This document shows positions 6,626 through 58,620 of a stretch of 64,000 nucleotides of DNA, piece by piece. The translations under genes were made by a program, and so were the position numbers. The stretch lies in NCBI GenBank assembly GCA_963714015.1, contig OY970223.1, positions 1,120,001 through 1,184,000 on the forward strand. Direction: 5' to 3'. The notes beneath the pieces are model-generated. The model was not told where the DNA came from. It saw nothing but the letters and a program-made list of their open reading frames with translations, and made no database searches. The stretch's first letter is position 1; each line of letters opens with the position of its first letter. Source of the stretch: Vulcanimicrobiota bacterium (lineage in GTDB: Bacteria > Vulcanimicrobiota > Vulcanimicrobiia > Vulcanimicrobiales > Vulcanimicrobiaceae).

Positions 6626-7434
6626 GCGTACTCGAGTTCGGCGGGCAATACGAACTGATGCTCGCCCGGCGTCTGGGGCATGACGCTGACGATCGGTTTG
6701 GTGCGCGTGAACTCCAGCAGTTCGGAAGGGCTGCCGAAGCGCGCCAAACGTTCCACATGCTTGATTGTCGGATACACCATCCTCAAATCGCCGTCCGCGA
6801 GGCGCTTCAGCGCGGTTTGCGGTGCAATCCAGATACCGTCGTGCGTCTCTATCAAATCGGCGCTGGCGGCTTGATCCGCCGAAGCAAACGCCACGAAGAA
6901 GTGCGCGTTGTAGCGCCGCGGATAAACCGGCGGCGTGATCCACTGCGAGAATAGCGAGAGCGCGGACGCATCGGCATAAACGCCGGCCTCCTCGAGCAGC
7001 TCGTCGAAGCGCTGTTCGCCGCTATGAACCCTCCGCCGGGCCGCATGCAGCAACGGTTCCAGCGGCGCGAGATCCCCGACCGAAAGCGCGTTGCCTGCGG
7101 CGTTGCAGGCGAGCAGGACGCCCGCCTCCTCGAACAATTCGCGCACGCCGGCGATCAGCAGACCCGCGCACTCCCGCGTTGTAGGCTCGTCGACCGGGAC
7201 CGGAAGTGCGGGCGTGCGCTTCGCACGGAACTCGCGTCTCAACGCGCGTAGATCGATGCCGCGCGTCCGATCGAATGCCTGCTGGGACAGGTCGGCCGCA
7301 TCGACGGTACCGCCGGGGAAAACGTAGACGTCCGGCACGAAATGGCTGGCCTCGCTGCGCCGGAGCATGAAGACTTCGAACGGTGCGTGCTCCGCCCGGC
7401 GGACAAGCATCACCGTGGCTGCTAAACGGACCAA
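6619..7434 (-). CDS. NUDIX hydrolase (NUDT19-like); start approximate
   Basis: AATVMLVR..YVFPGG..VRELFEEAGV..WITP..RRYNAHFF. Confidence 0.88.
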   Translation of the reverse strand: MVRLAATVMLVRRAEHAPFEVFMLRRSEASHFVPDVYVFPGGTVDAADLSQQAFDRTRGIDLRALRREFRAKRTPALPVPVDEPTTRECAGLLIAGVRELFEEAGVLLACNAAGNALSVGDLAPLEPLLHAARRRVHSGEQRFDELLEEAGVYADASALSLFSQWITPPVYPRRYNAHFFVAFASADQAASADLIETHDGIWIAPQTALKRLADGDLRMVYPTIKHVERLARFGSPSELLEFTRTKPIVSVMPQTPGEHQFVLPAELEYAW

Positions 7435-23366: not shown

Positions 23367-25067
<1,701 letters not shown>

Positions 25068-36883: not shown

Positions 36884-37231
36884 TTAGGGTGCAGTTGCCT
36901 TATGCTCGCGCAGGCGAAGGTACGCGGCGGCCTCGATGGTAATTAGTCCCTCGCCGATCATCTCTTCGAGTTCGGGAATGAGCGCGCGAAGATTTTCTTC
37001 GTCGTCGACGACTTCGATCAGAATCGGCAGGTTTGCCGACCAGGAAAACACTTTCGCGATATGGAGTTCGTGATGCGAGCCGAAGCCCTCGATGCCTCGA
37101 AACACGGTCGCGCCGGCAACGCCGCGCTTGCGCAGAAACTCCACGACTGCCGTATAGAGGGGTTCCACGCCGCGCCGGTCCTTCTCGTCGACGAAGATGC
37201 GCATCAACTTTCCGTCGCGAAATGCTTCCAT
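36884..37231 (-). CDS. DUF190 (PII-like) protein
   Basis: MRIFVDEKD..PLY..GATVFRGIEGFG..LPILIEVVD. Confidence 0.9.
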   Translation of the reverse strand: MEAFRDGKLMRIFVDEKDRRGVEPLYTAVVEFLRKRGVAGATVFRGIEGFGSHHELHIAKVFSWSANLPILIEVVDDEENLRALIPELEEMIGEGLITIEAAAYLRLREHKATAP

Positions 37232-37267
37232 ACCGCCTCCGCTGTTTACCGGTGGGTTTAGTATAGC

Positions 37268-37594
37268 ATGGTGGGAACGCTGCTGCGGATCTTCGTGTGT
37301 GAGGGGGAGCGTTACGGCAAAGAGCCGCTGTATGCCGCCGTTATCGGGGAACTGCGCCGGAACGGTTTCCACGGCGCCACAGTGCTCAAGGCAATCGAAG
37401 GATTCGGGATCCGCGGGCACGTGCGTTCGGCGCGCACTGTCGATTTGGCTTCGGATCTGCCGCTGGTAATCGAGATCATCGAATCGGAAGAAAAGGTTCG
37501 CGAGATCATTCCGCGGCTTACCGGCATGATTTCCGAAGGCATGCTAACGATCGAACGAGTGGAATATTTGCCGATACGGGCCAATACATCGTGA
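37268..37594 (+). CDS. DUF190 (PII-like) protein
   Basis: LRIFVCE..PLY..GATVLKAIEGFG..DLPLVIEII. Confidence 0.9.
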   Translation: MVGTLLRIFVCEGERYGKEPLYAAVIGELRRNGFHGATVLKAIEGFGIRGHVRSARTVDLASDLPLVIEIIESEEKVREIIPRLTGMISEGMLTIERVEYLPIRANTS

Positions 37595-37980
37595 TCGATT
37601 GGCGAATGTCGCTTGCGGTAATCGCCGGCGGCGGCATCGGTGCGTTTTTCCGGTACGCAGTCGGAGCGCTGTTCCTTCAGCGCTTCGGTCCTGGTTTTCC
37701 GTACGCCACGATGACGATCAATCTCCTCGGTTGTTTTTTGATCGGCATCATCTCCGAGCTCGCAGTGTCACGCGCCATAGGCGTCACTCCGCTGGTCCGC
37801 ACGTTCCTGGTCGTCGGGATCCTTGGCGGTTTTACGACCTTTTCGACTTTTGCGTACGAGGCCGTGACGCTCGGCGAGGAGGCCGCCGGGCTTGCGGCGC
37901 TTGCCTACGTTTGCGCCAGTGTCATCGGTGGAATCGTTGCCGCGTTCGCCGGCATGGTCGCCGTTCGAAGTTTGACCTGA
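37591..37980 (+). CDS. crcB: fluoride channel Fluc
   Basis: GGGIGA..RY, FPYAT..N..G, GILGGFTTFSTF. Confidence 0.95.
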   Translation: MIDWRMSLAVIAGGGIGAFFRYAVGALFLQRFGPGFPYATMTINLLGCFLIGIISELAVSRAIGVTPLVRTFLVVGILGGFTTFSTFAYEAVTLGEEAAGLAALAYVCASVIGGIVAAFAGMVAVRSLT

Positions 37981-38040
37981 CGGCTTCCGGGACGGTCACA
38001 ACCGCAAACTCTGCGCCGTCCTAATGGTTAGGAGGGATGA

Positions 38041-38611
38041 ATGGCACGTATCAAAGGCATCGATCCGAAGCAGGCACCACTTCCTATGCGGTTTGTTCTC
38101 GACAAGGTGCGCAGGATGGTTGGGCGCGACTTGACGCCTCTGCTCATCTCCGGTCGAGTACCGCGAGTCTTCTGGCTTCACGGGCTTGCGCAGTGGCTGC
38201 TTTTCGAGAAGTCCGCGCTGCCGCAGCGCCAGATCATGATCGTCGCCCTGCGAACGGCGGCGCGTGTGGGATGTCCGTTTTGAATCGATGCCAATTCTGC
38301 AGGTGGCAGAATGAACGGATTGAGCAGCACCGAGCTTGCGACGATCGCTGCAGGCGAATTTGAGGGATTTGAAGCGGAGGAGGCGACGCTGTTGCGGATG
38401 GCGGATGCGCTGGCTGAAACACCGGCCAATGTAAGTAGCGAGCTCTACGCGGATTTGCGGCGGCACTTTTCCGAAGAGCAGCTCGATCGAGCTGGCCACC
38501 GTAGCCGGATTTGAAAACCTGCGGGCCCGCGCCAATCGGGTGTTCGACGTCGGCAGCGACGGCTTATGTTCCATCATGGATCACCGCACTGCTGCGGCGG
38601 TCCATTCTTAG
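38041..38611 (+). CDS. AhpD/carboxymuconolactone-decarboxylase family selenoprotein (Sec at TGA 38281-38283; +1 indel at 38485)
   Basis: LRTAARVG-C-P-F-TGA-IDANS, in-frame continuation to ADAL..TP..VS..LR.HFSEEQL[I]EL..EN.RAR.N; SECIS-like hairpin. Confidence 0.85.
38294..38312 (+). promoter_or_regulatory. bacterial SECIS-like hairpin
   Basis: ATTCTGC-AGGTG-GCAGAAT, 10 nt after in-frame TGA. Confidence 0.75.
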
Positions 38612-38723
38612 CGGCGCGAGTACACAATGAAGATCGTAGGCAGGTGCTTGCCGCTCTCTTTTTTTGCGTCGTGCCTATTGCGCTCTTAATATTTCAGCAG
38701 AAGGCTCAGGAATCATCGCCGAG

Positions 38724-39200
38724 TTACGGTGACGTTAACATGTTCGGTAACCACATGAGCCGCGCCGCGCCCATCGTGCCGACGCCTACGATCAGTGCGG
38801 CGATCACAAGTGTTCCGGCTGACAACCACTTGATACGTGAATCCGTAACGCGACGTGCGCGAAGGTAGAGGTCGACTACGATCCAAGGAACCATGAATCG
38901 CGCGAACCCTATGAACATGTCGAACCAGCCGTCCATGTCCCCCGTCGTTCCTGGGCCGCCGCCGAAAGGCAAGCGGCCCGTCGCTACCGTCCAGAATCCG
39001 TATCCAATGCGGATAAACCATACGCCGCTCACCATGAGAAACGTCATGAGCGCCCAGCGCCGGTGCTCGTCGATCTTTCCGGCTCGCGCGTAGCCGATCG
39101 CAAGAAGCGCACAGAGAATAATGAGCGCACCGTTTGCGTCACTCGCCGCGGCAGCCGCAAACGATTGCGCCGGTCCGGCGTGAAAAAGTATCGGCCGCTG
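38724..39200 (-). pseudogene. DUF2306-like membrane protein, C-terminal remnant
   Basis: YARAGKIDEHRRWALMTFLMVSGVWFIR; no usable start upstream; 5' boundary approximate. Confidence 0.5.
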
Positions 39201-40679: not shown

Positions 40680-41238
40680 GTGCCAATCTCGGACGTCCTC
40701 GCCACGGTTTTGCTGCAGCGGATGCGCGATATGGATCGTGCCGAACGAAGTGTGCTCGATGTACGCATCGGTCATGGGTCAGCGGTTTCGGCTTGCCGTG
40801 CTGGCCGCAGCGACCGGACTATCGGAAGAACGCGTTCGCGCCGTGCTGGAGAAGGCCAGCGTGCTCCAATTCGTGATGTGCGAAGATGGGGAAAGCGATT
40901 GGTATGCCTTCCGCCACGCCTTAATTCGCGATATCGCGTACGAAGAATTTATCGGTAACCGCGTGCGTCCGATACACCGGCTTATCGCTCGCGCGCTCGA
41001 ACGCTGCGCCGATGCAAAGCACGTTCCGATCGACGATCTCGCGTACCACTCCTGGGCCGCCGGCGATGCCGAGCGCTGCGTGCGCTATAACGAACTTGCA
41101 GGCGATAGAGCCGCGGGGGCCTTTGCAAACCACGATGCTCGAATTTACTATGCGCGCGCGCGCGAGTTTGCAGACCCTAATTCCGAGCATTATCGCCGCT
41201 TGACCGGGAAACTCGTCCGGCTGCAACAGGACGGGTAG
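40680..41238 (+). CDS. short STAND-regulator-derived protein, post-ATPase helical/WHD region only (+1 indel at 40758)
   Basis: LLQRMRDMD..SVL..ASVMGQRF..FRHALIRD..Y..HRLIARALE..LAYHSWAAGD; paralog of 56555-57109. Confidence 0.75.
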
Positions 41239-41258: not shown

Positions 41259-43962
41259 GTGCGCCATGAGGCCGTCGCGGTGATCGTACGACCCGTCCTT
41301 TGCCGTCCGTTCGTCGGCCGGCGCCCCGAACTTGCGTATCTTCGGGAACGGCGGCTCGAAGCGGGCGCTTCGCGCGGCAGTCTGGTCTTCATCGCGGGAG
41401 ACGCGGGGCTTGGCAAGTCTCGTCTTATCGCGGAGTTCAGCCAGAGCTTTGGCCTATTCTCGTTGGCGGATCGCGCGCGGGCCGTGCCGCGAGTTCGGCG
41501 GCCGTCCATACGGTCCGATCTTGGATGCGCTTTCGAGTGTCGATCGCGGCGCCGCGCAGATAACGCCGGCCGAATCCAAGCGTCAATACTTCGAAGCAAT
41601 CATCGAAGGCTTTGCGCACATCGCCTCGCGCCAAGCGTTGGTCATCATCATTGAGGACTTGCATTGGGCCGACGCAGCGACGCTGGATCTCCTGGCGTAT
41701 CTCGGATCGCAAGTGCACCGAATGCGCGTTCTCGTGCTCGCGTCGTTTCGTCCGGGCGACCTGCATGCCGGACATCCGGCAGCCGCCGGAATCGAGAAAG
41801 TAGGCCACGCAGCCCGCGCGGGCCGCGTCGATCTCGGTCCCCTCCAAGGGCGTCGAACTGCGCACGTTCATCGACGAGGCCCTTTCCGGTTTCACCTTGG
41901 GCCGGAAGAAAAAGCGGGCCATTGCCCTGGCAGGCGAAGGCAACCCGTTCTTTACCGAGAGAGCTGCTCAAGAACGCAGTTCAGGAAGCAGCAGAAAATC
42001 AACAATGCGACGACGACGGCCGAGTACCGCACAGCGTACGCACCACGCTGCTCGAGCGATTGCGTCCGTTCGAAAGTGACGACCGCCGAATCGTAACGCA
42101 GGCAGCCGTAATCGGCCGGACCTTCTCGCTCGACCTTCTCGCCGACGTCATCGGCACCGAGCCGGACCTTCTCGTTCCGGCACTGCGGCGCGCTCGCGAT
42201 TTTCAGCTGATCGAGGAACTCGCGCCGAGTCTGTTTCGCTTCCGGCATGGTCTTACGCGCGAAGCGATCTGCAGCGAGTTTCTTCGCACCGAATTGCGGC
42301 CGCTTCATCGCCGAATCGCGGTCAGTTTAGAGAACGCACTCACCGGCGAACGGTCGGTCGAAGCGCTCGCGTATCATTGGTGGGCCGCGGGCGACGACGA
42401 GTGTATCGTCCGGTGATAACGAATTGGCAGGCGATGCCGCACGCCAAGTATTTGCGACGACAATGCTATCGCATTTTACGAGCGCGCGTTGGAATCGAGG
42501 AAGGTCGAACCAATCGTGCAAGGTTCAATTTTAGAGAACATTGCCAATCTGCGATTGTGTCAGCATGGCTGAAGAAGGTCCGGCGACCGTATTCTCCGGT
42601 GGTGTACGTCTTCAAGGCTGCGCGGACCGTTCAAGCGGGAAGCGGTGTGAAGCACTAGTGGCGATGACTGCCTACAGAGCGATCTTGCCGGTAGGAGTGC
42701 TTCACTCGAACAAATGCTCGAACGTTTGGAGCCCGGCGAATATCTCGCTCGCGCTCGGCTTCATCTGGGCATCGCCTGGATTGCGCAGGCGTTGCGTTTT
42801 CCGTCGCGCGCAAGCGTCGCATCTCGCTCTGGTCGATCCTCGCGCCGCGGGGATGCGGCCGCGTTCGGTGCGGTATCACAACGTCGCAGCGCGTCACGCT
42901 GCGGCGCTCGGAGATGAGCAGGGTTTTCGCCGCGAGCAGCGGCTTGGCACGATCCAGCGCGCTCGCACGGCGCGGCGCGATACCGGCGTTTAATACAATG
43001 GAGCGGAGTTCTTCCCATCCTTCGGTTTCATGAAGAAGCGCGTCGAAAATATTCGCAAAGCGCTGGACGTCGCGCGCGAAAAGAAAGCCGGCACGTCGAA
43101 GAGGCACCTACGCCACGGCGGCGCTGGCCACAAATGAGCGGCGATTGGCAAGCGGCCCGCACTGCGGTCGAATCGGTTTCCACGACGTCCGATAACCGTG
43201 TCAATATCACGTTTCGACGGCTGCGGGAACCGCCGTTGGAACGTATCTCGGCGATGAGGCTTTGATCGAAAAATGGTGCGACGGATCGAAGATACGATGA
43301 CAATCGCTCCCGAGATCGAATGCGGGCACGGTTTCGCGGAAGTTCTCGTTCGCAGAGGCCGTCACAAGGATGCGCAGCGGCTGCTGCATCGCGTACTCCC
43401 AAAATGCGAAGTAGTGCGGGGAGAGGTTCTGATGCTGCTCGCGATAGCGCGGTACGGAGCGACGGAAGATCGTGTTCAGGCACGCGAATATCTCGCGCGC
43501 GCCGGCGAGATGGGTGATTCGCTCGAGCGTTGCGCGTTGGCGCTCTTCGATGCGATCTGCGCAGACGATCGCGAAAGCGCGCCGCGTTTGGCCTTTGAAG
43601 CAGCCGAGGGTTTCAAGCGTTTCCGAACGCCGCTTCTGGAAGCCGCCGCGCGCGAAATCGCCGGAGACCTCGATTCAGCCCTCGCGTTGTACCGTCGCTG
43701 CAGCGCCGCATACCACGTGCGTCGGCTCGAAGGAACCCGTCCGACCGGCAGCGATGCGCTCGCATCGCACGATTCTCCCGAGTTTTCGGAATTTTCTGCA
43801 CGTGAACGTGAAATCGTCGTGCTGGCCGCGAACGGCGAATCCAATTTAGAGATCGCACGCAGCCTTTCAATTAGTCATAAAACCGTCGAAAAGCACCTTG
43901 GCGCGGCCTATCAAAAGCTCGGCGTCTCCTCGCGGCGACAACTACGGTCCTACGTTAAGTAG
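41259..43962 (+). pseudogene. AAA-ATPase/LuxR (LAL/MalT-like) regulator with many frameshifts (pseudogene or assembly errors)
   Basis: FVGR..GDAGLGKSRL, IEDLHWAD, GNPFF, FRHGLTRE, C-terminal LuxR HTH; colinear with intact paralog 53821-56514. Confidence 0.85.
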
Positions 43963-53820: not shown

Positions 53821-56514
53821 TCACGTGGCAAGGTACGGACCGATGTGGCTGCGCGACGAGATACTGAGCTTTCGGTAGACGGATGCCAGGTGCTTCTCAA
53901 CCGTCTTGTGCGTTATCGAAAGACTATGCGCAATCTCCAAATTGGACCGGCCGTTTGCGGCGAGTGTAGCGACTTCGCGTTCGCGCGCCGAAAGCGTCGC
54001 GACGGCACCGTGCCCGGTCGGGCGGTCGGTTTCGAGTCGGCTGATGTCATACCTTGCGCCGCAGCGTCGAAATAGGACGAGCGCTGCTTCGATATCGCCC
54101 GCGACTTCAAGCGCGGCGGCCTCGAGAAGGGGAATTCGAAGGCGCCGAAAACCCTCGGCCGCTTTCTTCGCGAGCGCGGCGGCTTCGTCTTCGCGTGCGG
54201 TCCGCAAGCACACGATCGCATCGAACAAAGCAAGTGTGGGGGCCTCGGGCAATTCATCCGACGTATCTGCCGCTCGGACGAGGTATCCGCGTGCACGTGA
54301 CCGATCTGCCGCCTCACCGTAGCGCGCCAGGGCGAGCATCGTTAGCGGCTCGCCCCGCACCATTTCGGCTTTGGGAAGTGCACGGCGCAGCAGCGCAGCA
54401 GCGTCGTGGAGCCGGCCGCGGCGGACCATGATTTCGGCAAAGCCATAGCCGCACTCGATTTCCGGGGCCGCGGATATTGTGCTTTCGAATCCGTCGAACC
54501 ATTTGTGGATCAAGGCTTCATCATCTAAATGCGCCCCGATGACGGTTCCCGCCGCGGTCGCGAACGTCACATTAACGCGGTTGTCGGTCGTCGTCGGCAC
54601 CAGCTCGACGGCGGTACGAGCACGCTCGAGATCTCCGCTCAAGACATAGCAGAGCGCAGCCGTCGCATGAGCGCACTCTTCAGCGTGCCGGTTCCGCGAT
54701 TCGCGCGCGATCGCAAGCGCACGCTCGACGTTCTCGAGCGCTTCTTCATGCAGACCGAACGACGAAAAGCACTTCGCGCCGTTGTAGTGTGCGCCTGCGA
54801 CCGCCCCCGCGCCGCGCGAACGGGCCGCCTCGAGCCAACTCGCATGCTCGCGGCGAAAGCGAGCGACATCGCCAATCAGGGTGGCGACCCAAGTTGCGAC
54901 ATTGTGGAACCGAACTCGGATGTCGGACGCGATGTTAAGCGCCCGTGGATCGACTCGTTCAAGATGATATTCGGCCCGCGTAGGAGATCCTAATGTGGCG
55001 GCCAGCCAGGCGACGCCGCAATGGAGTCGACTTCGGGCCAAGTATTCATTGGAGTCTAGCCGTGCGAGCATCTCTTCCAAAGGGGCTGTTGTATCGGACA
55101 GGCTGATCGTGTAGGCAGTGATCGCCCCGCGGACTCGGCAGACGGCCTCGCGCTCGTGAGAACCCGCGCCACGAAACGCGTCGGCGGCGGCTCGGTACGA
55201 AGCCTCACCCTCCGCGGTCAACGTCAGCACGATACGGCGATCCGCAATCTTTTCCAGGATCGAGCCTCGTACGACCGCCTCGATGCCGGGTAACTCGAGC
55301 GCGCGTTCGTAGCAAGTAATGGCGTCCTCGTGAGCGTGGACGCGTGCAGCTTCGTCGCCGGCAAGCGCGTTATATCGGGCCGATCGCGCCGGGTCTCCCG
55401 CGGCCCACCAATGAAAACCGAGCGCTTCTAAAGAGCCCTTTTCTGACGCCGAGGTCTCGAGCGCCAGCGCGATCGCGCGATGTCGCGGCTGCATCTCAGC
55501 GTCGAGAACATTGCCGTAAATAGCCTCTCGCGTCAAGTCGTGGCGGAAGCGGAACAACCCGGCTCCAATTTCTTCGACGAGTTGGAAATCCCGCGCACGG
55601 CGCAAGGTCGAGAGCAACAGCTCTTCTTCGGTCTCCAGCGTCGTAGCGAGGAGCTGCAAGCCGAACGTGCGCCCGATCACCGCCGCTTGCGTCAGGATGC
55701 GTCTTTGAGCGTCGTCGAACGGGCGTAAACGCTCGAGCAGCGTCGCGCGAACCATCTGCGGAAGCTCGCGGTCTCTGGCAAAGCTGACGTGCTCCGAACT
55801 TTTCTCGACGGCGCTTTTGAGCAGCTCCTCGGTGAAGAATGGATTTCCGTCAGCCGCAAGCGCGACCGCCCGGCGCGTCTCTTCGGGTAACGCGATGCCT
55901 GCCAGCGCTTCGTCGATGAACGTTCGCAGTTCGGTACCGCGCAGCGGGGCAAGATCGATTCGACCCGCCCGCGCGTTTCGCGCGATCTTCGCGACGGCGA
56001 CAGTCGCGGGATTCTCCGAGTTAAGTTCGTCGGTACGGAATGACGCGATGACCAAAACGCGCATGCGCTGCAGTTTCGAGCCGAGATAGGCGAGCAGCTC
56101 CAACGTCGCCGCGTCGGCCCAATGCAAGTCTTCGATAACGACGCCTAGCGCGGTGCGTGAAGCAATCGAAGCTAAACGATCGATGATCGCGTCGAACTGC
56201 TCGCGCTTCGTCGCCGCGCCGAGCTCGAACGGACGTGTATCGACGCGCGCGAGCACGTCAATGATTGGTCCATACGGCCGGCTCGCGAACTCCAAGCAAG
56301 TGCCTTGACCGATTTTCCAGCGCGAGTACACCAGTGAGCCGCAGAACTCTGCGATCAATCGCGATTTGCCGACCCCGGCATCACCGGCGATTAGCACCAG
56401 GCCACCATGAGAAGAGGCCGCTTCGAGCCGGCGCTCGCGCAAATATGCGAGCTCCTCGCGGCGTCCTACAAATGGCCGGCAAAGCACAGGTCGGACGATC
56501 ACATCGGTCGCCAT
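53821..56514 (-). CDS. AAA-ATPase/LuxR (LAL/MalT-like STAND) transcriptional regulator
   Basis: GDAGVGKS, IEDLHWAD, GNPFF, FRH.L.RE, TPR-like region, LSAREREVA..SNLEIA..TVEKHL..YRKL. Confidence 0.93.
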   Translation of the reverse strand: MATDVIVRPVLCRPFVGRREELAYLRERRLEAASSHGGLVLIAGDAGVGKSRLIAEFCGSLVYSRWKIGQGTCLEFASRPYGPIIDVLARVDTRPFELGAATKREQFDAIIDRLASIASRTALGVVIEDLHWADAATLELLAYLGSKLQRMRVLVIASFRTDELNSENPATVAVAKIARNARAGRIDLAPLRGTELRTFIDEALAGIALPEETRRAVALAADGNPFFTEELLKSAVEKSSEHVSFARDRELPQMVRATLLERLRPFDDAQRRILTQAAVIGRTFGLQLLATTLETEEELLLSTLRRARDFQLVEEIGAGLFRFRHDLTREAIYGNVLDAEMQPRHRAIALALETSASEKGSLEALGFHWWAAGDPARSARYNALAGDEAARVHAHEDAITCYERALELPGIEAVVRGSILEKIADRRIVLTLTAEGEASYRAAADAFRGAGSHEREAVCRVRGAITAYTISLSDTTAPLEEMLARLDSNEYLARSRLHCGVAWLAATLGSPTRAEYHLERVDPRALNIASDIRVRFHNVATWVATLIGDVARFRREHASWLEAARSRGAGAVAGAHYNGAKCFSSFGLHEEALENVERALAIARESRNRHAEECAHATAALCYVLSGDLERARTAVELVPTTTDNRVNVTFATAAGTVIGAHLDDEALIHKWFDGFESTISAAPEIECGYGFAEIMVRRGRLHDAAALLRRALPKAEMVRGEPLTMLALARYGEAADRSRARGYLVRAADTSDELPEAPTLALFDAIVCLRTAREDEAAALAKKAAEGFRRLRIPLLEAAALEVAGDIEAALVLFRRCGARYDISRLETDRPTGHGAVATLSAREREVATLAANGRSNLEIAHSLSITHKTVEKHLASVYRKLSISSRSHIGPYLAT

Positions 56515-56554: not shown

Positions 56555-57109
56555 TTAGCGCTCGTCCATGACTCGCAGCTTCGTTGTCAGACGTTCGTAG
56601 GCGAGCGAATCGGCATCGAGCAGACTACGTGCGCGAATGTAGTATGTCCGGGCGTCATCCTGCGCATGGACCTCTGCGGCGTTGTCTCCGGCGAGCTCGT
56701 TGTAGAGCAACGCGCGCGCGGCATCACCGGCGGCCCAAGAATGGTACGCCAAGTCCGCGAGCGGCGCATTGACGGCGGCGCGCGCTCGTTCCAGCGCTCT
56801 GACAATGCTGCGGTGAAACGGACGAATTCGGGCCGCGGGGAGTTCTTCATAGATGATGTCTCGCGTGAGCGCATGGCGAAACACGTAGAACTCGCACGTT
56901 GGATTTTCCGCCGCGGTGAGTTGGAGTCCGCAGGCTTCCTCGAGTGCAGCCCGCACCTTCGATTCCGAACACGACGCGGTGGCAGTCAGCACGGAAACGG
57001 AGAAGCGACGGCCGATCGCCGCCGCCCGCATAAGGACGGCGCGCGCGCCGCGGTCCATGCGCCGCACGCGTTCGAGGACGCTGGATCGTAACGCGTCCGG
57101 AATATGCAC
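56555..57109 (-). CDS. short STAND-regulator-derived protein (post-ATPase region only)
   Basis: IPDALRSSVLERVRRMD..AAAIGRRF..FRHALTRD..LAYHSWAAGD; GTG 6 nt after TATCGT. Confidence 0.82.
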   Translation of the reverse strand: MHIPDALRSSVLERVRRMDRGARAVLMRAAAIGRRFSVSVLTATASCSESKVRAALEEACGLQLTAAENPTCEFYVFRHALTRDIIYEELPAARIRPFHRSIVRALERARAAVNAPLADLAYHSWAAGDAARALLYNELAGDNAAEVHAQDDARTYYIRARSLLDADSLAYERLTTKLRVMDER

Positions 57110-57264: not shown

Positions 57265-58620
57265 ATGAGGACTTCTCGTTTCACGCAGTGCTCGCTTGCC
57301 GCGGCGCTGAGTTTGGTTTTTGCGGGGTGCAGCGGCGGCGGATCGCAGGTAACGCCGTCCGCAAATTCGGGCGTCATGTCCGAACCGCAAGTTGCCCAGG
57401 CGCGCACAATCTTCGAGCCCACTAGCACGCCGGTGAATTGGAGCCAGACGGATTTCAATTCTTCGCACATCGGCTTCAATGCGGATGAGAAGACGATCTC
57501 GACAGGCAACGTCGCCAACCTCAACTTCCTTTGGGGTCAGTCGGTGACCGATGGCGTCACGGGTTTCGCGCTCGTCAAAGGGACGATCTTTGCTCAAAGC
57601 TCGAATTCGTCGGGGCCTCCGATGCTCATCGCCCTGAACGCAACAACGGGAACTATTTCGTGGACGGCAAGAACAGGCGCTGATGGGTATCCCGAAAACG
57701 GGACGGTTGCTACCGGAGGGGGCGATGCGTACGTGGGCTGCGGGACTAAGGCGACGGGCAATCCCGGAGGAGTATGCGCTTTCAGTGAGGCGTCCGGGAA
57801 GCGACTGTGGGCCTACATTCCCGATTGTAAGTGTCAATTCAACGGTACCGTAGCGTCACCGCTGGTCTACTCGAACGGTGTCGTATACTATGGCGTAAGC
57901 GGTTTTCCGGGGCAATCGGATCCGTACGTCGTCGCTTTGAACGCGCAGACCGGAAAGCCGATATGGTCTTACGATCCCGGATCCGGAGCGCTCGGTAGTG
58001 CGCCTCTTGCCGTGAGTGGCGGGAACGTGTTCTTCGATTGCGTCACAGCAGGAAATGCCGAGGGGATCTGCGCCGTTAAGAACAGCGGCGGCTCCCTGTT
58101 GTGGCAGGCAACCACCGGAAATACGTCCACGGCATTCAGTATTGCGGCCGGCGTGCTTTACGCCAGCAACAATCAAGACGTCGTCGTCGCACTAAATGCT
58201 GGGACGGGAGCAGCGCTGTGGTCGTCCGCTGCCGCGGTCGGCAAGAGCGCATTTCCGCCCGCGATCGCGCTTGGCTCTGTTTACGTTGCGGGTAATACCA
58301 GCATTTCAGCGCTTAAGGCGACGACGGGAGAGCAACTCTGGTCCAATACGCTCGCGTGTTCGCCGGAAAGCTCCCCATCCGTTGCCAACGGCGTTGTTTA
58401 CGTCTATCAAGGTGGAAATAACTGCCCCGCGGTATCGGCCTTTGACGCTAAGACAGGGGCGCTGCTGTCGAGTATCACAACCTCAACTGCCTCGTTCGCT
58501 GTTTCGCCGGTCATCGCAAACGGAACCCTGTACGTCGCTGATGGTGTATGCGGAAGCCTCTGCGCCTACGTACCGAGTCAGGCGCTCAGACAGAGACTGC
58601 CGACGACCATTCTACGGTAA
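57265..58620 (+). CDS. PQQ-like beta-propeller lipoprotein
   Basis: FAGC lipobox, WSQ..F..SHIGFN..E, repeated ALNAxTG..W blades, SPSVANGVVY. Confidence 0.88.
   Translation: MRTSRFTQCSLAAALSLVFAGCSGGGSQVTPSANSGVMSEPQVAQARTIFEPTSTPVNWSQTDFNSSHIGFNADEKTISTGNVANLNFLWGQSVTDGVTGFALVKGTIFAQSSNSSGPPMLIALNATTGTISWTARTGADGYPENGTVATGGGDAYVGCGTKATGNPGGVCAFSEASGKRLWAYIPDCKCQFNGTVASPLVYSNGVVYYGVSGFPGQSDPYVVALNAQTGKPIWSYDPGSGALGSAPLAVSGGNVFFDCVTAGNAEGICAVKNSGGSLLWQATTGNTSTAFSIAAGVLYASNNQDVVVALNAGTGAALWSSAAAVGKSAFPPAIALGSVYVAGNTSISALKATTGEQLWSNTLACSPESSPSVANGVVYVYQGGNNCPAVSAFDAKTGALLSSITTSTASFAVSPVIANGTLYVADGVCGSLCAYVPSQALRQRLPTTILR

Follow-up and report, generated by a model that had tools for sequence, protein, structure and literature searches.

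An AhpD/CMD-family gene with a probable selenocysteine codon, cut in two by gene calling and shifted in frame by one extra base

The gene at positions 38041-38611 on the forward strand of the 64-kb stretch of DNA analysed here (the window) is, with high confidence, a selenocysteine (Sec)-encoding gene of the AhpD/CMD family with a SECIS element; this confidence covers the identity of the gene and not the function of this particular copy, in which an extra G at position 38485 puts the last 41 residues out of frame. The locus is a clean, checkable case of a selenoprotein gene cut in two by routine gene calling, and its relatives are present in public protein sets almost only as halves. The standard signature of a selenoprotein combines conservation of the UGA with the pairing of Cys and Sec at a redox motif and with coding constraint past the codon.

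The gene starts with the ATG at 38041, and a Shine-Dalgarno-like AGGAGG can be read from the sequence 5 nt upstream (38030-38035, forward strand). The first part of the coding sequence, in frame 1 (38041-38484, forward strand; translation and Pfam), comprises 148 codons including the in-frame TGA, and reads MARIKGIDPK...RTAARVGCPF, TGA, IDANSAGGRMNGLS...HFSEEQL. The codons around the TGA are GTG GGA TGT CCG TTT TGA ATC GAT, that is, V-G-C-P-F-TGA-I-D, where the TGT at 38272-38274 encodes Cys78, the first position of the C-P-F-U motif and an invariant column in the family alignments, and the TGA at 38281-38283 would be read as Sec81. The list of open reading frames was said in the initial annotation to divide the gene at this TGA, and it does contain two pieces cut there, 38041..38283 (80 aa) and 38311..38514 (67 aa). 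As assembled, frame 1 continues beyond Leu148 (38482-38484) with DRAGHRSRI and is closed by a TGA at 38512-38514, giving a product of 157 aa. The family-like C-terminus (IELATVAGFENLRARANRVFDVGSDGLCSIMDHR...) sits in the next frame, the +1 frame, from 38486 to the TAG stop at 38609-38611; this last part, IELATVAGFENLRARANRVFDVGSDGLCSIMDHRTAAAVHS, aligns with the C-termini of the relatives. Thus, family-like sequence does span the whole interval 38041-38611 that had been assigned to the gene, but its end is reached only by a change of frame at 38485, a position at which the initial annotation had advised that the reads be checked, without stating the frameshift.

A scan of a genome collection found 113 relatives, from which 80 loci with 41-80% protein identity to the window gene were kept; the closest are six Eremiobacterota loci (72-80% identical, the best match at 80%). 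The Sec codon is TGA in all 80 loci, 64 of which were assigned via a motif search and 16 via translation. Of these loci, 79 are complete at the 5' end, and all but one of the 79 (78) contain a single frame of 178-197 aa with one internal TGA, the exception being L067, which is frame-broken. In an exhaustive search made with no profile, 356 proteins reached E <= 0.001, among them full-length proteins of ~190 aa at 25-36% identity. When 18 such distant full-length homologs were aligned, the TGA column held Cys in 17 and Arg in one, in the context G-C-P-F-C-[IL]-D. The proposal that the TGA occupies the second Cys position of a CxxC motif, for which an alignment of homologs at this column had been suggested as a check, is therefore upheld by both the uniform TGA in the related loci and the predominant Cys in the distant ones. 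The further proposal that the frame runs on as CMD sequence also stands: the read-through matches the Pfam CMD family (PF02627) with E 2.4e-08 and 34.3 bits against a cutoff of 23, and constraint at the protein level persists past the TGA. In the codons beyond it (columns 82-148), residues are kept while synonymous sites drift, as at Ala121, Ala123, Thr127, Pro128 and Leu139, and the stretch of nine codons from the TGA to Met91 is likewise conserved as protein in the same frame.

Were the TGA a plain stop, the locus would consist of two small genes (80 aa and ~95 aa) or of a pseudogene created by a nonsense mutation, and the hairpin described below would be incidental. Gene callers do yield exactly these two pieces, an ATG (Met91) is present past the TGA in 65 of the 80 sequences, and Sec machinery is not seen in the window. 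Nevertheless, the presumed nonsense codon is identical in every one of the kept loci over the whole range of protein divergence, and the nine codons ahead of Met91 are conserved as protein, in frame. Because Met91 is replaced by Lys in the Pyrinomonadaceae group, a restart at this position offers no explanation. Moreover, the Cys-type homologs are single polypeptides, and the AlphaFold model of L001, the closest intact relative (80% identical), forms a single domain with the motif at its centre, which argues against two genes. We consider a plain stop to be extremely improbable.

The distribution of matches in public protein sets mirrors the split. Of 74 matches to the 148-aa read-through, 6 span the whole query, whereas 38 are confined to the sequence ahead of the TGA and 30 to that beyond it, so that 68 of the 74 lie on one side of the TGA, as anticipated from the notion that standard annotation would split the gene. 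We inspected 24 of these matches. In all 12 N-terminal pieces among them, ...GCPF are the last family-like residues; 11 of these pieces stop there, and the remaining one, P0012, continues out of frame instead. P0012 reads GCPFELMQILPEAECAA, as though one T of the TTTT ahead of GA were missing. All 6 inspected C-terminal pieces begin at the first Met past the TGA, and the 6 full-length matches (P0002-P0007, all JGI-called) carry W at the TGA column. These tryptophans would be the main argument for translation of the TGA as Trp, Gly or Cys, rather than Sec, owing to an altered genetic code or to leaky translation of the stop. Most simply, however, the W would reflect the TGA=Trp table of a gene caller applied to short contigs. 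Besides, TGA serves as an ordinary stop for 13 of the 35 Pfam-supported ORFs in the window, and many orthologs terminate the Sec gene itself with TGA, a usage from which it appears that the codon is not reassigned. The homologous residue is a redox Cys, and a conserved hairpin lies downstream of the codon at the register of the Escherichia coli fdhF SECIS. Taken against these observations, insertion of a residue other than Sec is, in our judgement, scarcely credible.

The hairpin ATTCTGC/AGGTG/GCAGAAT is located within the reading frame at 38294-38312 (forward strand) and, as originally reported, is a perfect 7-bp stem that starts 10 nt past the TGA. In the single sequence it is unremarkable. 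The local fold has z = -0.44, with 60 of 200 shuffles folding equally well; perfect 7-bp hairpins with loops of 3-8 nt number 54 per strand in the window, and such a hairpin starts 7-13 nt downstream of 6 of the 758 TGA triplets in the window. What raises it above chance is its conservation in the relatives. In the window gene and 79 loci, the Ser86 codon is TCT in 80 of 80 sequences and the Gly89 codon is GGC in 78 of 78; the Arg90 codon is AGA in 78 and AGG in 2, the latter retaining a G-U pair; the Ala87 codon is GCC in 70, GCA in 7, GCT in 3 and never GCG; and the Asn85 codon is AAT in 74 and AAC in 6. At Gly88, in the loop, all four glycine codons occur (1.82 bits). Among 36 well-conserved columns with 4- or 6-fold degeneracy, the four degenerate stem codons show the four lowest synonymous entropies (0, 0, 0.17 and 0.65 bits), the other 32 columns ranging from 1.21 to 2.32 bits. 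Furthermore, two of the preferred codons are rare in the genome, TCT accounting for 5.5% of Ser and AGA for 4.1% of Arg codons, and the hairpin lies at the same distance from the UGA in every one of the 80 loci.

The apex had been likened to that of the E. coli fdhF SECIS, and this resemblance extends to its position. In the fdhF gene of E. coli K-12, read directly, the TGA is followed by 14 nt and then by TGCAGGT, and the window gene has the same heptamer past the same 14 nt, which places the loop G-U at 23-24 from the U of the UGA in both. Both hairpins lie inside the ORF just past the UGA and share UGCAGGU at the same register; the hairpin of the window differs in having a perfect 7-bp stem, a 5-nt loop and no bulged U, and the likeness is one of sequence alone. 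The bulged U is important for E. coli SelB. The loops of the relatives are mostly CGGNG or CGUNG, as compared with AGGUG in the window.

The evidence for the hairpin comes from the frozen synonymous sites only, because covariation was not detected: RNAalifold on 43 sequences gave 5 invariant pairs and zero compensatory changes, and, for an 8-bp version of the stem in the same number of sequences, 93.6% of cells were paired, with a double change in 0 of 8 pairs and no excess over shuffles. A search against Rfam in gathering mode over the whole window yielded no match; in evalue mode over 37900-38800, the sole hit, to Alpha_RBS, is unrelated and, at 12.4 bits, falls short of the cutoff of 38. 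The lack of covariation and of an Rfam match, together with the unremarkable stability of the single sequence, would fit a hairpin that is maintained by constraint on protein or codons, or that has some RNA function other than that of a SECIS. Protein constraint, however, could not fix synonymous third positions or the choice of the rare TCT and AGA; the stem codons are frozen while the loop codon is free; and the spacing to the UGA is invariant and equal to that in fdhF. An explanation other than a SECIS accordingly appears to us quite improbable, and the comparisons support the view of the hairpin as an RNA element conserved at the register of fdhF. A scan of the window for further selenoprotein candidates, which required a hairpin and a TGA flanked on both sides by 60 or more open codons, recovered three sites. 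One is the present gene; the two others, at 6656 and 25073, fall within known genes but in a different reading frame.

Under the proposed model, the hairpin at 38294-38312 would function as a bacterial SECIS located within the coding sequence. Its apical loop, with G23-U24 (numbered, as for E. coli fdhF, from the U of the UGA), would be bound by SelB loaded with Sec-tRNA(Sec), which would supply Sec to a ribosome stalled at this codon, leaving the ordinary TGA stops of the genome unaffected. Sec decoding by this organism is inferred from the gene itself: none of the 83 ORFs scanned in the 64-kb window contains a SelA, SelB or SelD Pfam domain, the window contains no tRNA genes, and the flanking regions of the 80 loci yielded no tRNA-Sec either. 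In an Acidobacteriaceae MAG, 6 kb from the Sec gene, ARAGORN predicts an unusual tRNA-like gene of 90 nt whose anticodon consists of two bases ('tRNA-???'; L056:16578-16667, forward strand).

The window appears to derive from a member of the Eremiobacterota; its ThiC is 84-91% identical to proteins with Baltobacteraceae, Eremiobacteraeota and Vulcanimicrobiaceae names. By title, the six closest loci belong to Baltobacteraceae or Eremiobacteraeota and ~70 of the others to Acidobacteriota, with one each from Binatia, Verrucomicrobia, 'Clostridia' and an unclassified 'bacterium'; such bin labels can be wrong. From this distribution, Sec decoding would seem to extend to Eremiobacterota and to many Acidobacteriota of soils, a point of relevance to selenium use in that habitat. 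A full-text literature search for 'Eremiobacter' together with 'selenocysteine' returned no paper.

With respect to protein family, the best NCBIfam model is NF053654, the 'YciW-related (seleno)protein' (GroundWater_YciW), which is matched over its full length (positions 1-179 of 179) by P0002 and over positions 1-149 by the 148-aa part of the window gene; the name of the model indicates that Sec forms occur there too. Nevertheless, the scores (59.6 bits for the window part, 81.3 for L003 and 88.3 for P0002) are far below the equivalog cutoff of 310 bits, which points to a related clade and not to membership. TIGR01926 is likewise matched at only 15.7-24.4 bits, with a cutoff of 81.8, and the score to TIGR00778 is under its cutoff as well. 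A profile built from 50 family members matched 2gmy, 2ijc, 2o4d and 7xw1 in the PDB (E 1e-22 to 6e-24), as well as Bmp8 6ohi (5.5e-19) and AhpD 6k40 (5.8e-08). In residue-by-residue comparison with 2gmy and 2ijc, G-C-A-[FY]-C aligns with G-C-P-F-U.

The AlphaFold model of L001 (pLDDT 95.6, pTM 0.89) is all-helical, with Cys78 just ahead of helix 79-91. Foldseek matched it with TM 0.80-0.86 to 2prr, 6ohi/6ohj, 6k40 and 6e8l, a range that becomes 0.76-0.86 once 3c1l is included. These AhpD/CMD structures, among them the Bmp8 debrominase (6ohi/6ohj), share the all-helical fold and a CxxC at the N-terminus of a helix; they differ from the window family in that sequence identity is 14-26% and that the His of CxxCxxxH, four residues past the second Cys and present in 2gmy and 2ijc, is replaced by Asn in all 80 sequences here. 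The Mycobacterium tuberculosis AhpD (1knc) is a distant match, with TM ~0.5 and E 0.38. In that enzyme the nucleophile is the second Cys, so that Sec would occupy the catalytic position in the present family.

We propose that the gene belongs to a protein subfamily of soil bacteria that has the CMD/AhpD (YciW-related) fold and uses Sec as the second redox residue of C-x-x-C. Judging from the fold and the motif, the product would be a small, all-helical thiol/selenol oxidoreductase, in which Sec81, in the first turn of a helix, would be the nucleophile and Cys78 would resolve it to a selenenylsulfide; a peroxide or an oxidised partner protein are possible substrates. When the ORFs within 5 kb of the gene in the 80 loci and the window were clustered, no partner was found in more than 13 loci, and no AhpC-type partner gene is conserved nearby. 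The commonest neighbours, labelled from reading their sequences, are Ser/Thr kinase-like (13 loci), a second CMD protein (8 loci) and ECF-sigma-like (7 loci). In its 8 loci, including L052:9382-9882 (reverse strand), the second CMD protein is of the Cys type (GCSVCVDMH) and is encoded just upstream on the opposite strand. Beyond the Sec gene itself, a comparison of the ORFs of the six closest loci with the window gave a single match, weak and unrelated, at 57406-58542 (25% identity).

Selenoproteins of the AhpD-like type with a CxxU motif, and SECIS elements within ORFs, are textbook knowledge, and the remark in the initial annotation that AhpD-like selenoproteins exist accords with the accessible parts of two publications. 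From ocean metagenome surveys, AhpD-like 1 (COG2128) and AhpD-like 2 (pfam02627) are listed there, both with CxxU (PMC2398784), and a 2026 review lists the AhpD-like, CMD-like (PF02627), distant-AhpD and AhpD-related families, all with CxxU (PMC13188914). As far as these descriptions go, the window gene shares with the known AhpD-like and CMD-like selenoproteins the Pfam family, the placement of Sec second in CxxU and the existence of Cys homologs, and it thus adds one more such gene and no new principle. It differs from the 'AhpD-like protein' of the review (TIGR01926, in the part of the review available), the window family scoring far under the cutoff of that model. The hosts here bear Eremiobacterota and Acidobacteriota names and are soil or groundwater-type MAGs, a comparison with the published CxxU families that extends to their descriptions only. 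In the accessible part of PMC1794560, 3 selenoprotein families are counted in Acidobacteria and a conserved G is marked in the SECIS apical loop; the corresponding parts of PMC13326102 and PMC7609411 contributed nothing specific.

The window copy itself does not have one uninterrupted frame, Sec codon aside, from start to stop. In the DNA alignment, G38485 is present in the window only: the six closest relatives (L001-L006) read CA[AG]CT[CA]-AT[CA]GA.. at this site, with no G, and in a tblastn comparison their ORFs switch from frame 1 to frame 2 of the window at 38485. The extra G turns a quasi-palindrome of the relatives into the perfect 16-nt palindrome CAGCTCGATCGAGCTG (38479-38494), with a central GATC. 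The part that is lost corresponds to the long core helix 145-167 of the L001 model, with the shift at its start, and includes the invariant Arg163 and the nearly invariant Glu158, Asn159, Arg161 and Asn165. If the frameshift is real, the product is very likely inactive. Programmed frameshifting at 38485 was considered and dropped, as the extra base occurs in no relative and there is no slippery site or stop-codon context.

Assembly error and recent inactivation appear to us roughly equally probable. A real frameshift would make this a recently inactivated selenoprotein gene, with the loss either confined to this one gene or part of a wider decay of selenoprotein genes in a lineage no longer able to decode Sec; this scenario, to which we assign slightly less than an even chance, is compatible with the Sec reading of the family, concerning this copy only. 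It is favoured by the intact frames of nearly all the other loci and by the absence of the G from the six closest relatives. Furthermore, the window contains ~39 kb of Pfam-supported ORFs free of interruptions, which implies that this assembly suffers little from random indel errors. Also present in the window is what appears to be another decayed gene, a LuxR/AAA_16 paralog at 41271-43956. The insertion lies outside any homopolymer, and a quasi-palindrome made perfect, here over 16 nt, is a signature of hairpin-templated mutation. The lack of visible Sec machinery within the window is likewise in line with an inactivated copy; the copy may be dead, which would also fit a lineage without Sec decoding. 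Decay is made less likely by the finding of a single lesion, past which 41 codons are still open, end where the relatives end and are ~70% identical to them, and by the intact Shine-Dalgarno sequence, TGA and hairpin. In addition, the source contig of 3.56 Mb suggests a long-read assembly, in which single-base indels occur, and the public relative L067 (L067:9995-10393, which ends early, after ...TPSKRQR) and the database protein P0012 are likewise frame-broken, an indication that such breaks do occur in assemblies.

The same observations bear on the extra G as a sequencing or assembly error, in which case the organism would have an intact selenoprotein gene of 189 codons. That the sequence past the shift is perfectly gene-like, that every other feature of the gene is intact and that single-base indels exist in public assemblies of this family all speak for an error, whereas the lack of a homopolymer at the insertion and the uninterrupted long genes elsewhere in the window speak against it; we give an error an even chance. 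A more specific composite picture, that of an undescribed CMD/AhpD-fold selenoprotein clade outside NF053654, widespread in genomes with Acidobacteriota and Eremiobacterota names and equipped with an fdhF-apex SECIS, whose window copy carries a real, palindrome-perfecting frameshift, is tentative and, taken as a whole, unlikely. On account of the frameshift, annotation of the window copy as functional should await support from the reads; if the lesion is real, a selenoprotein gene would have been caught at the moment of its loss. The unusually rigid hairpin with its fdhF-like apex would serve as a convenient natural SECIS for read-through tests.

Several observations were made on other genes of the window. 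No TPP riboswitch was found upstream of thiC (23370-25064) at the Rfam gathering threshold. Directly upstream of the Sec gene lie two DUF190 genes (36884-37420, reverse strand, and 37268-37594, forward strand) and crcB (37591-37980, forward strand), a group at 36884-37980 that looks like a fluoride-export cluster; no fluoride riboswitch was found in the window at the Rfam gathering score. The LuxR-type regulator (AAA_16 ... GerE) at 41271-43956 on the forward strand matches an intact 897-aa paralog (53824-56514, reverse strand) over all three frames and, as judged from this pattern, is apparently either a pseudogene or a product of locally bad assembly. Two further, shorter fragments nearby, at 40765-41169 (forward strand) and 56621-57103 (reverse strand), match residues ~250-408 of the same 897-aa LuxR-type protein.
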